Virus record (IMG/VR): IMGVR_UViG_2648501361_000001
Direction: 5' to 3' (one strand)
DNA: 11,610 bases
DNA from: a virus
Taxonomy: Monodnaviria; Loebvirae; Hofneiviricota; Faserviricetes; Tubulavirales; Inoviridae
Positions 1-3,000 of the stretch are shown piece by piece. The number at the start of each line of letters is the position of its first letter. Within the stretch, counting starts at the first letter, position 1. Position numbers: made by a program.

Positions 1-3000
1 TCAGCCTTTTATTTCAGTAATGCCGCCATCTGATGAAATGTTATAAGTTACTCCTTCCCTCCCCTCCATTGACCAGACGCGAACATATACAGGTATCTGG
101 ACTAACTTACCGATAAAATTATTTGCCTGATTCATTACACCGGCATTAACAAGAGCCTGAGATACACGAATAATAATCTGGTCTTGCTTAGTGCCACCAA
201 AACCATCAGGAATCTCTAAGCCAACACCAATTTCATTATAGTATCCCTGACCATTGACCTTATTACGCTGGCGAGCACCAAGCATTTTACCTTTTACAAA
301 AAGACCATAATTAGACATATCACTCTCCTTTAATGCCAGTTACTGGCATGTGAAATACGGTTATAATCGAAAATTAAACCTTTCTCATAAACCCATGATG
401 GAATTTTGGCTGGTTTGGCTTCAAGAGTACGAACCAACGGAACAACGTTATTAGAATCCGGTGACTCACAATAAAAGTTAATATCTATTCCGAAAGAAAG
501 TAATTCTTTACGGTGTCGGTAGAATGTAGGTTTCGGTAACATCTCTTTCATGTTCGCGCCCTGCTTCCACAATAAATATGTAGACTGTATTTTTCTTGGG
601 AGATTAATTATTTTTTCATCAGTTAATATGGTATTTTGATTCATTTCTATTCTCCCTACATAGTCAGAGAATAATTTATTGGGCGTCTCAATATTCCAGC
701 TATTACCAAGCGTAAGATTCAAATCAATTAATTCAGTTGTTCTTAATGTTAATTCAATGCGTAATTTATCTTTTGACCAGTCCAGTAAACCAGCTTTAAC
801 GAATTCGTCTGCCATCTGGTGCCCTTTTTTGCCAGATGTATGCTCATCATATTTTGAATAAAATTTCAGGCTCCAACGACGGGAGTTTTTCCCTAAGTAA
901 ACAGTGCCACCTTTACCACAGGCGCGACCGTGGCGAGTTTTAGCTTTAAATTCTGCGGCATATAACCATGCGCGGACATTTTCTAATGTTGACAATGAAT
1001 ACATGTAATTGATATCGATGCGCGAGATCTTAAATTGCCCTTCCATGACCTGCCGATAGGATGGTAGATCATGAGGAATATGCAGTAATGCCAATATTCT
1101 GGCGTAAGCTGTTAACACCAACCCTTGCAAATCGTCGGAACCGATAACAGAGTGACCTTGCAAAAACTTTGATGGATTACCGTCAATGTAGAGATGTGTT
1201 GCCCGACCTTCACCATCAGATCCAACAGACCTTACTTTCATTGTGGACTCATGCGAACCGCGAACTGTCAACCGTTTTACTGTTTCCCACTCCACTGCAC
1301 CGTCAGCATTGACGCTGACGACACTACCAGCCGGTAACGGTCGGTGTGTGCAAGGCAGGATTCCGGTAAACCAGTCGATCATAAGTAGTCACACCCATCA
1401 AAATATGTGTCAATAGTCATTTGTGAGCAGATTGAATGGTCACAATGTAATATGCTCAGATCTGACAGTCAATACATTTGCAATGTTTAAATTGTCAGAA
1501 ATGAGCATCAAATCTAACTATTGAAAAACCACTGTTAAGATGGAGCCAAGTAGATGGGCAACAATGAGCATGAAGTTATGGCGGACAAACAGAGAGCAGA
1601 ACGTATCAAAAAGGTAATTCTGGAACACTCGACTTATGAAGAACTGGCCGAGAAGACTGGCATTAGCGTGAGTACGCTGGTCAGGATAGCGTCCGGCAAA
1701 ACTGAACCTAAATTCAGTGACATCATTCAGATAGCTAAAATTACTGGTGCAGACTTAAACACCTTAGCTTATGGCTATGCTCTTGATGTTAAAGAAGAAG
1801 CTACCGAGCGGAAGCTAATCACTTCTGCGGATGGATATACTGATGAAGAAACCACTAACGCACATAATTTCATCGTGTGGAACATCAGGACACTGGAAAA
1901 ACAAGATATTCTGGCACTCGCAAGGCAGGTTTCTGCCTTAAGTTCATACACTTACAGTACTAAAATGTTTATGAAAAAAGCGGTGTCTGGAGAAGAGTAA
2001 AAGGATTAACAGTCTCAGGAATGAGACAAACGTGCAGTATTACCAACACTGCACGTTCTAGTTTGTGCAAAACTTAAACAAAAAGTAAGTCATCGAGATA
2101 AACAAAACGAGTCAAAGTATATACTGATGAATACGCCAAAAAAAAGTGAACAAAAACAGAATGATAAGCAACAAGGCTTTGCCCAAGATGGTTTGGACAC
2201 ATCTAAAGCAAAAAGGCTTTTAGAAAAAGCTCAACAATCCACTACTAAACCAACACAAGGAAAGTAATATGTTATCTTTTCAGGTTTTCCTTTTTAAAAA
2301 AGCATTAGAGGAAGAATTAGATATAATCAAATGGCATCCAACAAATGAACAATTGGAGGAGATGTTCAATGAGATAAAAAAACTCAGTGGCAATGAAAGC
2401 ATCACTGAAGTTGAAAATATCGTTCATCGAATTTACAAAAAACCGATTACAAGAATGATTTGTAATGGATTGAATACATCGAAAGCAAGTTCGCTATTGG
2501 CAAAAATTCAATCCCAGTCAAATAACACTCAACAAAAAAGATAGTGAAATCAGATATGGATGTTCACGGTATCATTGATAATCAAAAAAAAGAAATTGAG
2601 CGTTTATATGAAAAATATACTGAGTCATTAGAGTGTTACCTATCTGGTAAATGTGATTTTGATACCGTGAATTCATGTGGAGACAGTTTTTTCGGCTATT
2701 TAGAACACTGCGCTGCACATAACAGAACAGTAGATGAATTAAATAATACTCAATGGAATCAATGGCTTGCAGAAACATGCATTGATGTTCTTCACCTTAT
2801 CTTAGCTCATTACAAAAAATATAGAGAGGTAATGAATGATAATAGTATTAAACCAAGCTCCACTGCTTTTGCTTCAATGCAAAGGATAGTAAAAGCCCAT
2901 GACAAACGTTCTGCAAAAGAAATAAGGAATCTTTTCGTTAATGAAGATATGCCAGTATATGGATTTGACAATAAAGGAAAAGAAAAATTGACAAAAGCAC

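Follow-up and report, generated by a model that had tools for sequence, protein, structure and literature searches.

The window analysed here is an 11,610-nucleotide stretch of DNA (Inoviridae; IMG/VR record IMGVR_UViG_2648501361_000001) that consists of two tandem CUS-1/YpfPhi-type filamentous prophages at the Escherichia coli dif site, with identical cores and differing accessory cassettes, here called A and Z. It spans the end of one prophage copy, the whole of a second copy and the start of what comes next. Its core, repressor and cassette Z are 100% identical to the prophage of strain UTI89, and it is 99.9% identical to that of strain F11. The right-hand part of prophage copy 1 (repeat copy A, 1-2059) is coded on both strands and carries G5P (1-318, minus strand; Pfam Putative_G5P), the replication initiator G2P (330-1382, minus strand; Pfam Phage_CRI/G2P_X_C, with E-values of 1e-73 for PF05144 and 3.5e-34 for PF05155), a helix-turn-helix repressor antisense to G2P (1554-2000, plus strand; Pfam HTH_3) and two hairpins. 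After it come cassette A (2060-3249), a phage attachment site (attP) that doubles as the junction between the prophages (3250-3345), and the core of prophage copy 2 (3346-9088). The G5P-G2P-repressor-hairpin segment of copy 2 (repeat copy B, 9089-11147, both strands) is identical to repeat copy A, and cassette Z begins directly behind it.

The two copies of this segment form an exact direct repeat (1-2059 = 9089-11147) with a period of 9088. Both finish with the same hairpin, AACGTGCAGT-ATTACCAAC-ACTGCACGTT, at 2029-2057 and 11117-11145, which has a 10-bp stem and a 9-nt loop; after an intervening CT they diverge at 2060 and 11148. Beyond the breakpoint 13 of the next 21 positions are still alike (AGTTTGTGCAAAACTTAAACA versus TTATTGCGCGAATTTTGAACA). 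The shared hairpin, the breakpoint and the 13/21 likeness had been described in a first-pass annotation of the window and were reproduced, and the likeness exceeds what AT-rich sequence would be expected to give. If every ungapped pairing of 21-mers from cassettes A and Z is counted, the average is 5.8 matches and P(>=13) comes to 0.0015; the empirical P is 0.005 once the post hoc choice of length is allowed for. Post-hairpin similarity also recurs independently in each other cassette type found after this hairpin. The breakpoint observation is confirmed as real and beyond chance, and the breakpoint is a true module boundary, between a putative origin hairpin and a swappable accessory block, rather than a dif/Xer site.

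Cassette A (plus strand) encodes open reading frames (ORFs) of 46 aa (2127-2267), 91 aa (2269-2544) and 234 aa (2544-3248), the last with a membrane-type C-terminus. Of cassette Z (plus strand) the window holds the first 463 nt (11148-11610), which exactly match UTI89 from position 13818 of its locus (L001) and encode a 140-aa membrane protein (11188-11610). The full cassette Z in UTI89 (L001 13818-15505) has two ORFs, one of 140 and one of 369 aa, and its far end is at the same attP edge. The two cassettes have no homology save at both edges; from 3250 (L001 15506) on, where attP site 2 has its outer edge, the sequences are homologous again. The cargo proteins have no match in Pfam and no credible one in PADLOC, and their PHROG families are of unknown function. 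Relatives were collected by exact-hairpin scans of genomes, viral contigs and metagenomes (56 loci) and by retrieval through G2P, in which the hairpin was not presupposed (about 45 loci). The interval between hairpin and attP is occupied by at least 13 cassette types, all of which start 1-3 nt past the hairpin, and all those that could be traced to their far end stop at the outer edge of attP site 2, with cassette and attP together measuring 890-1790 nt. Across about 90 related loci cargo begins right after the hairpin, as had been proposed, and with at least 13 unrelated cassettes in this place, and the same cassette on different cores, the suggestion of a cargo-insertion hotspot stands. Homology stops abruptly at both edges because the cassette fills the exact interval between two essential cis elements, the putative origin hairpins and attP. 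Among 5426 complete E. coli genomes, the junction of repressor and cassette Z occurs in 97 and that of repressor and cassette A in F11 only.

The cassettes share a short element at their hairpin edge, an 18-nt imperfect palindrome (TTGTGCAAAACTTAAACA; 2063-2080, plus strand) whose second copy is TTGCGCGAATTTTGAACA (11151-11168). A degenerate form of this motif (consensus TTGnGCGAAtTTTGAACA) follows the hairpin in all cassette types, preceded by 3-5 variable nucleotides, and in most types a cargo ribosome-binding site (RBS) and ATG come within a further 13-19 nt. As the motif travels with every cassette, it accounts for the residual likeness of the 21 nt. No second copy was found in the phage. 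Our best guess is that the motif serves as leader or operator of the accessory operon, or as an auxiliary origin element. It did not fit a CRP, FNR, LexA, IHF or sigma-70 site when compared by eye, with an additional scan for sigma-70. A comparison with the pII-binding repeat of f1 and I2-2 gave 14/19 to f1 in the same orientation, which is not significant given the number of comparisons made, and that repeat, as it stands in I2-2, is a relic of an IKe-type origin.

At the other edge of cassette A lies a CTX-type attP (3250-3345, minus strand), made of two inverted dif-like sites that would form a forked hairpin in single-stranded DNA. Site 1 (3318-3345; ACATAACGAGT CGTACA TTATGCGCACC) has a perfect XerC arm, and site 2 (3252-3278; GGTTCGCACAA TGACG TTATGCTAAAG) is inverted and dif-like. 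The predicted fold has a free energy of -31.2 kcal/mol (z -7.7), and the element is kept after every cassette type. The window on its own holds just the inter-copy junction at 3318-3345. In UTI89 a single prophage beside hipA lies between a perfect dif on the left (L001 5988-6015) and a phage-type site on the right (L001 15575-15602). [quoted passage not shown] Consistent with this, YpfPhi and CUS-1 have been listed as CTX-type IMEX whose production requires replication by rolling circle (PMC4246890). In double-stranded attP, the phage-strand site has XerC and XerD-like arms that lie 11 nt apart.

The first-pass annotation had raised the possibility of diverged core sites behind the hairpin and had noted a weak likeness of the copy-B side to the complement of a dif XerC arm. 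On this view the 21 nt would be diverged Xer or dif-like core sites, into which XerC and XerD would insert cassettes by site-specific recombination. The minus-strand half of the motif, AATTCGCACAA, does match the XerC arm at 7 of 11 positions, and the 3-5 variable nucleotides are placed where a central region would be. The lack of a good XerD arm has precedents, as in some IMEX attP sites (TLCphi). A search for dif around both junctions, however, found no 28-mer better than 14/28; the null has a mean of 13.5 and its 95th percentile is 16, so the dif resemblance is at chance level. Each 9-kb unit has 115 11-mers that match the XerC arm at 7/11 or better, and no XerD arm was found at the motif (3/11). 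A genuine Xer substrate is already present at the other cassette edge, 1.2 kb away, in the attP at 3250-3345. We therefore regard the Xer explanation as highly improbable.

One further likeness bears on the same question. In most Z-type phages ATTGTGCGAA in the post-hairpin motif and TTCGCACAAT within the XerC-like arm of site 2 of attP are exact reverse complements, so that an inverted repeat of 10 nt brackets the cassette (2063-2072 and 11151-11160 compared with 3254-3263). The repeat matches at 9/10 positions in the window's Z copy and at 8/10 for cassette A. A rough estimate puts the chance of such a match at about 0.005, a post hoc figure, which speaks for a Xer role. Against it, motif and site 2 do not covary: in some phages site 2 drifts toward the XerC arm of dif (GGTTCGCATAAT, GGTGCGCACAAT) and the motif does not. 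The inverted orientation would moreover yield inversion, not insertion or excision.

We next consider what the hairpins at the boundary may be. The minus strand of the window is the G2P strand, which in this phage family is the packaged plus strand, and both hairpins are read on it. Hairpin 2 (2029-2057; second copy 11117-11145) has the form AACGTGCAGT-GTTGGTAAT-ACTGCACGTT, and hairpin 1 (2012-2027; second copy 11100-11115) is an inverted repeat, GTCTCA-N4-TGAGAC, so that the full layout is AACGTGCAGT-GTTGGTAAT-ACTGCACGTT-T-GTCTCA-TTCC-TGAGAC. This is the plan of known plus-strand origins. In M13 (5767-5810) the order is GAGTCCAC-GTTCTTT^AATA-GTGGACTC-T-TGTTCCA-AAC-TGGAACA, and in IKe the annotated viral-strand origin at 6554-6599 follows the same plan; CUS-1, M13 and IKe have in common a loop ending in T^AATA and an inverted repeat 1 nt after the hairpin. 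The nick of f1 lies at T^A, between 5781 and 5782 (PMC11765958). In CTXphi, Ig-1 at the 3' end of the antisense rstR contains ACCCCCGT-CTAG^TATT-ACGGGGGT, with a mapped G^T nick (PMC4439123, PMC8265649). By analogy, the loop of hairpin 2 would be cut as AACGTGCAGT-GTTGGT^AAT-ACTGCACGTT, and the predicted G2P nick (2041-2043, minus strand; second copy 11129-11131) falls at T2042^A2041 on the f1/IKe model (T^AATA) or at G2043^T2042 on the CTXphi model (G^TATTAC). On these grounds the hairpins at 2012-2057 are likely the phage plus-strand origin, with hairpin 2 as the element nicked by G2P and hairpin 1 as the counterpart of the initiator-binding repeat of the f1 and IKe origins. As DNA, a 91-nt stretch with both hairpins folds on the plus strand with about -15.5 kcal/mol (z -3.9 to -5.9); read on the opposite strand, hairpin 2 has a stem that grows to 13 pairs. 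Rfam returned sub-threshold chance matches only.

Comparison across relatives points in the same direction. Because exact-hairpin scans make the invariance of the hairpin circular, the test was repeated on the loci retrieved through G2P. In all of these with enough upstream flank (G2P 46-100% identical) the hairpin is on the G2P strand, and it stands upstream of G2P on the same strand in phage I2-2 (L027) and in four further loci, L131, L133, L136 and L137 (G2P 46-58% identical). The loop GTATGTAATAC is kept, one stem pair covaries, with compensatory changes that make it CG, AU or GC depending on the phage, and 96% of cells are paired. The exact hairpin, together with the same 60 nt upstream of it (the end of the repressor gene), is also present in Yersinia pestis NCTC5923. 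Hairpin 1 is GTCTCA/TGAGAC across at least four regulator types in phages with G2P 89-100% identical, and both its arms switch to GTACCA-N4-TGGTAC in the UPphi clade (G2P 85-87% identical), as would be expected of a repeat to which the initiator binds specifically.

When the whole window was compared by megablast with deposited phage genomes, no match was found, and I2-2 came up in the G2P protein search alone. In I2-2 (G2P 58% identical) the non-IKe part of the intergenic region has just one stretch in common with CUS-1, hairpin 2 with the adjoining TGTCTCA (35/38). In this region of I2-2 (L027 2520-2580 and 2667-2697) an IKe-type origin 3' arm and inverted repeat are retained (GTGTACTC TTGTTGCAAAATCGCAACG), the IKe-type 5' arm and TTTAATA nick site are lost, and the CUS-1-type hairpin lies about 90 nt downstream, adjoining a small antisense ORF that resembles the UPphi regulator. 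The region looks like the visible scar of a replication-module replacement. More distant still is L136 (1300-2400; G2P 46% identical), with antisense ORFs, a motif-like AT-rich element, a nick-type hairpin (loop GTATGTAGTAC), an antisense regulator and, in place of hairpin 1, a perfect GTCTCA-TTGG-TGAGAC inverted repeat. Since L136 has the same architecture, the origin-plus-cargo layout is older than the CUS-1/UPphi group; its AT-rich element may be a weak counterpart of the 18-nt motif.

The same hairpins could instead form an intrinsic terminator of the repressor or regulator gene, with the 18 nt as the 5' leader of the accessory operon and cassettes exchanged by homologous recombination through the hairpin (about 32 nt) and attP (about 100 nt). 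The hairpins start 12 nt past the repressor stop codon and are placed likewise after the unrelated UPphi and U3-type regulators. Their tail in Z-type phages is T-rich (UUCUUUAUU; 5 U in 8), the cargo RBS and ATG 13-19 nt past the motif suit a leader, and the annotation of the IKe origin hairpins as potential terminators is a precedent for a dual role. What speaks against a terminator is that it needs structure, not sequence, and here the sequence of the loop and of most of the stem does not vary even among phages whose G2P is as little as 46% identical. In L137 the hairpin is 26 nt before the G2P start codon with no antisense gene between to terminate, and in I2-2 it is about 90 nt from the nearest antisense ORF. 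A terminator consensus scan made no call at the hairpin, which has a 9-nt loop and, in the A and Ypf types, a weak T-run (3-4 U in 8). The terminator-and-leader explanation is, in our judgement, unlikely.

It is less likely still, and we think it very unlikely, that hairpin 2 is a minus-strand origin or packaging signal. Hairpin 2 is stable on the packaged strand, and filamentous phages cluster such signals in one intergenic region. I2-2, however, keeps IKe-like packaging and minus-strand-origin hairpins elsewhere (2229-2303 and 2400-2429, corresponding to IKe 6107-6181 and 6332-6361) and has hairpin 2 in the part acquired with its new G2P, and a T^AATA loop with an adjoining inverted repeat fits plus-strand origins. 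The window also offers a better place for these signals. CUS-1 and the IKe-like UPphi of F11 share G5P and G2P, the hairpin region with the cassette and one element of 100 nt (3710-3813), and no more. This element is non-coding, 88% identical between the two phages and the one such shared segment besides the origin region, and it contains the core of a long imperfect hairpin, CCGGACAGCAACAAAAC...GTTTTGTCACTGACCGG (about 3767-3810), a candidate packaging signal or minus-strand origin.

Two other nick sites were considered and rejected. The plus strand of the Z copy contains CACGTTCTTTA (11142-11152), an 11-mer equal to M13 5772-5782, but this strand is antisense to G2P, the TTT in it is specific to Z cassettes (other types have AG, GG and the like), and the hairpins of relatives are in G2P-sense orientation. 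We judge this match to the M13 nick region, present at Z-type junctions only, to be coincidence; a possible GCAC/GTGC mini-stem around GTTCTnnnTT in the Z copy was dropped along with it. On the phage strand, a CCTTTTT pyrimidine run 5' of the motif is the complement of the cargo RBS, and its register is not kept in type D6.

The cassettes have moved between phages with different cores. A matrix of regulators against cassettes has many combinations, including all four gametes for CUS or UPphi with Z or A. The window, with a CUS core, and L093, with a UPphi core, have the same cassette A plus attP (1290/1290 nt), and the Z1 cassettes of L062 (CUS) and L085 (UPphi) are alike at all but 1 of their 899 nt. 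In both comparisons divergence on the core side starts 4 nt beyond hairpin 2. Given identical blocks on different cores with this edge, the exchanged unit runs from hairpin 2 through the cassette to attP. The hairpin has one polymorphism, in the third loop position (2045), which is to the cassette side of where the nick is predicted and follows the cassette haplotype across cores, and the base just outside the hairpin (2028) follows the core. This is consistent with a joint bounded to 2029-2044, with the predicted nick inside. The first-pass annotation had suggested a recombination joint at the breakpoint itself; the residual likeness it drew on is meaningful, but if a site-specific joint exists, the evidence puts it in the hairpin loop, at the predicted nick on the opposite strand, a few nucleotides to the left of the place suggested.

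Heterologous prophage arrays, which could bring different cassettes side by side, are found in the window, in F11 and in L032. F11 (L002 2220-28459) has a triple dif array of CUS-A, CUS-A and then an IKe-like UPphi with a Z-type cassette, and the metagenome contig L032 holds UPphi-Z followed by UPphi-A. The product that would be expected from the F11 array, a UPphi core with cassette A, exists both in L093 and in E. coli MS 200-1. In CTXphi, virion DNA arises by nicking at the origin of one tandem prophage and at that of the next, which yields hybrid genomes (PMC8265649, PMC4246890). By analogy, these phages, once irreversibly integrated, would produce their virion DNA by rolling-circle replication that begins at one prophage's origin and ends at that of its neighbour. 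In the window, such a round would begin at 11130, proceed leftward over the copy-2 core, attP and cassette A, and stop at 2042, and its product would be the copy-2 core joined to the neighbour's cassette. More generally, all that lies between the attP crossover and the origin nick of one prophage, the cassette included, would be joined to the core of the next, so that each origin-to-origin round across a junction would package the neighbour's cassette with the phage's own core. Cassettes would thereby be shuffled among phages with a common origin. For CTXphi, hybrid genomes from tandem prophages were reportedly described by Davis and Waldor in 2000.

On balance we favour this explanation as a whole, in which origin hairpins and attP bound the cassette and origin-to-origin replication reassorts the cargo. 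A wider claim is that heterologous dif arrays are a built-in, site-specific device for cargo reassortment, the cassettes semi-autonomous hitchhikers common to cores that are otherwise unrelated (the CUS-1/Ypf type and the IKe-like UPphi type) and the 18-nt motif their common adaptor for expression or replication; we offer it tentatively, and doubt it slightly more than we credit it. Homologous recombination, which goes with a terminator role of the hairpins, is a possible route too; it would have to act through an identity of 32 nt at the hairpin. Identity of that length is near the minimum usually quoted for efficient RecA recombination, yet the same cassettes occur on several cores.

Several points weigh against the favoured explanation. 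The assignment of the origin rests on analogy and comparative genomics. Among the initiators compared, the match of this G2P to M13 pII is weak (23%), and RstA of CTXphi has no detectable sequence similarity to it. The hairpins directly follow the repressor stop codon, with a T-rich tail in Z-type phages, and a terminator role is plausible. The linkage of loop polymorphism and cassette comes from about 2-3 informative recombinants and would arise by chance about one time in three under uniform homologous recombination. The 18-nt motif is left unexplained by the origin model, and it is absent beside the hairpin in the non-integrating I2-2-like phages. Finally, the exact A-then-Z array was found in 0/5426 complete E. 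coli genomes. Together with the difficulty that an exact 2-kb repeat poses for short reads, this last result could mean that the array is an assembly artefact, a collapsed or mis-joined repeat. Both of its junctions, however, occur independently in finished genomes (A in F11, Z in UTI89 and 96 others), and F11 and L032 have comparable heterologous arrays. We see an artefact as a slim prospect, and the conclusions on the junctions are independent of the array.

As a feature the element is of an ordinary kind, and the phage that carries it is a known one. The window is CUS-1 of E. coli O18:K1:H7, or YpfPhi of Y. pestis, with the same integration at dif, tandem copies and imperfect dif at the inter-copy junction. 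For these phages it has been reported that two ORFs beside one att site differ (YPO2271-2272 in YpfPhi, orf1 and orf1a in CUS-1; PMC4266046) and that accessory regions are variable (PMC7307601). These two papers treat the variable ORFs descriptively, with no mention of an origin, a hairpin or a defined exchange unit. Here, by comparison, the variable interval is mapped to the nucleotide and holds at least 13 cassette types, of which cassette A is rare. UPphi (Lineavirus-like dif prophages of Enterobacterales) has hairpin 2, the motif, cassettes and attP in common with CUS-1 and joins it in the same dif arrays, as in F11, and its genes II and V are common with YpfPhi (PMC7307601). It differs in its structural module, its small regulator and the GTACCA/TGGTAC variant of hairpin 1.

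Other filamentous phages share parts of this arrangement. CTXphi has the same order of att, origin hairpins, antisense repressor and initiator gene, and is of the same class, with a forked-hairpin attP, irreversible integration and an origin needed both upstream and downstream (PMC4439123, PMC8265649, PMC4246890). Its nick lies in an apical hairpin loop, CTAG^TATTAC, compared with the predicted GG^TAATAC here. The att-to-origin interval of CTXphi is non-coding, whereas here it contains 0.8-1.7 kb of accessory genes, and origin-to-origin replication would therefore reassort cargo. The Ff phages (f1/M13/fd) and IKe share the Pfam family of the initiator and a hairpin upstream of gene II on the viral strand, in which T^AATA, at the loop's 3' side, continues into the 3' arm and an inverted repeat follows after 1 nt. 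Stem and inverted-repeat sequences are unrelated, and their loop is 11 nt rather than 9 nt. Unlike Ff and IKe, CUS-1 has an antisense regulator gene between origin and gene II, and its nick is a predicted one. I2-2, the example of 'module evolution' of a replication module, shares G2P and the hairpin followed by TGTCTCA as given above, and differs in being non-integrating, without attP, cassette or the motif beside the hairpin.

The phage, its integration at dif, the tandem arrays and the variable accessory ORFs are already published, and origin-to-origin hybrids are established for CTXphi. What may be new is the recognition of the hairpin as a putative plus-strand origin of the G2P lineage of I2-2, CUS-1, YpfPhi and UPphi, the nucleotide-level map of the exchange unit, the finding of identical cassettes on unrelated cores, and the placement of cargo inside the segment that would be inherited from the neighbouring prophage. 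CUS-1 and YpfPhi have been linked to the fitness of extra-intestinal E. coli and of the plague bacillus, and the accessory ORFs are obvious candidates. The bounds set by origin and attP, the movement of cassettes between cores and the geometry of the arrays give a testable rule for the spread of cargo among Enterobacterales dif prophages, in which array geometry predicts which cassette gets exported. A candidate origin for the G2P lineage from I2-2 to YpfPhi could also be useful for replicon building or phage curing.

The remaining features of the window concern the core, cassette A and the repressor region. The core of prophage copy 2 is coded on the minus strand and contains a secretin (4217-5461), Zot/pI (5461-6486) and the pIII-like puvA (6790-8502), as well as two small ORFs, a DUF2523 protein, the major coat protein and a small membrane protein. 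In cassette A, the 46-aa ORF (2127-2267) matches just positions 53-98 of the 98-residue PHROG 6875 profile, and an RBS-like purine run, AAAAAGTAAG (2081-2090), follows the motif with no start codon behind it; the first gene of this cassette may be truncated or mis-started. The intergenic region between G2P and the repressor, together with the repressor start, contains a direct repeat, TAAATTGTCAGAAATGAGCATCAA / TAGATGGGCAACAATGAGCATGAA (1488-1511 and 1551-1574; also 10576-10599 and 10639-10662), whose units are 75% identical and 63 nt apart and which may be an operator. This intergenic region is not common to UPphi, consistent with an immunity region.

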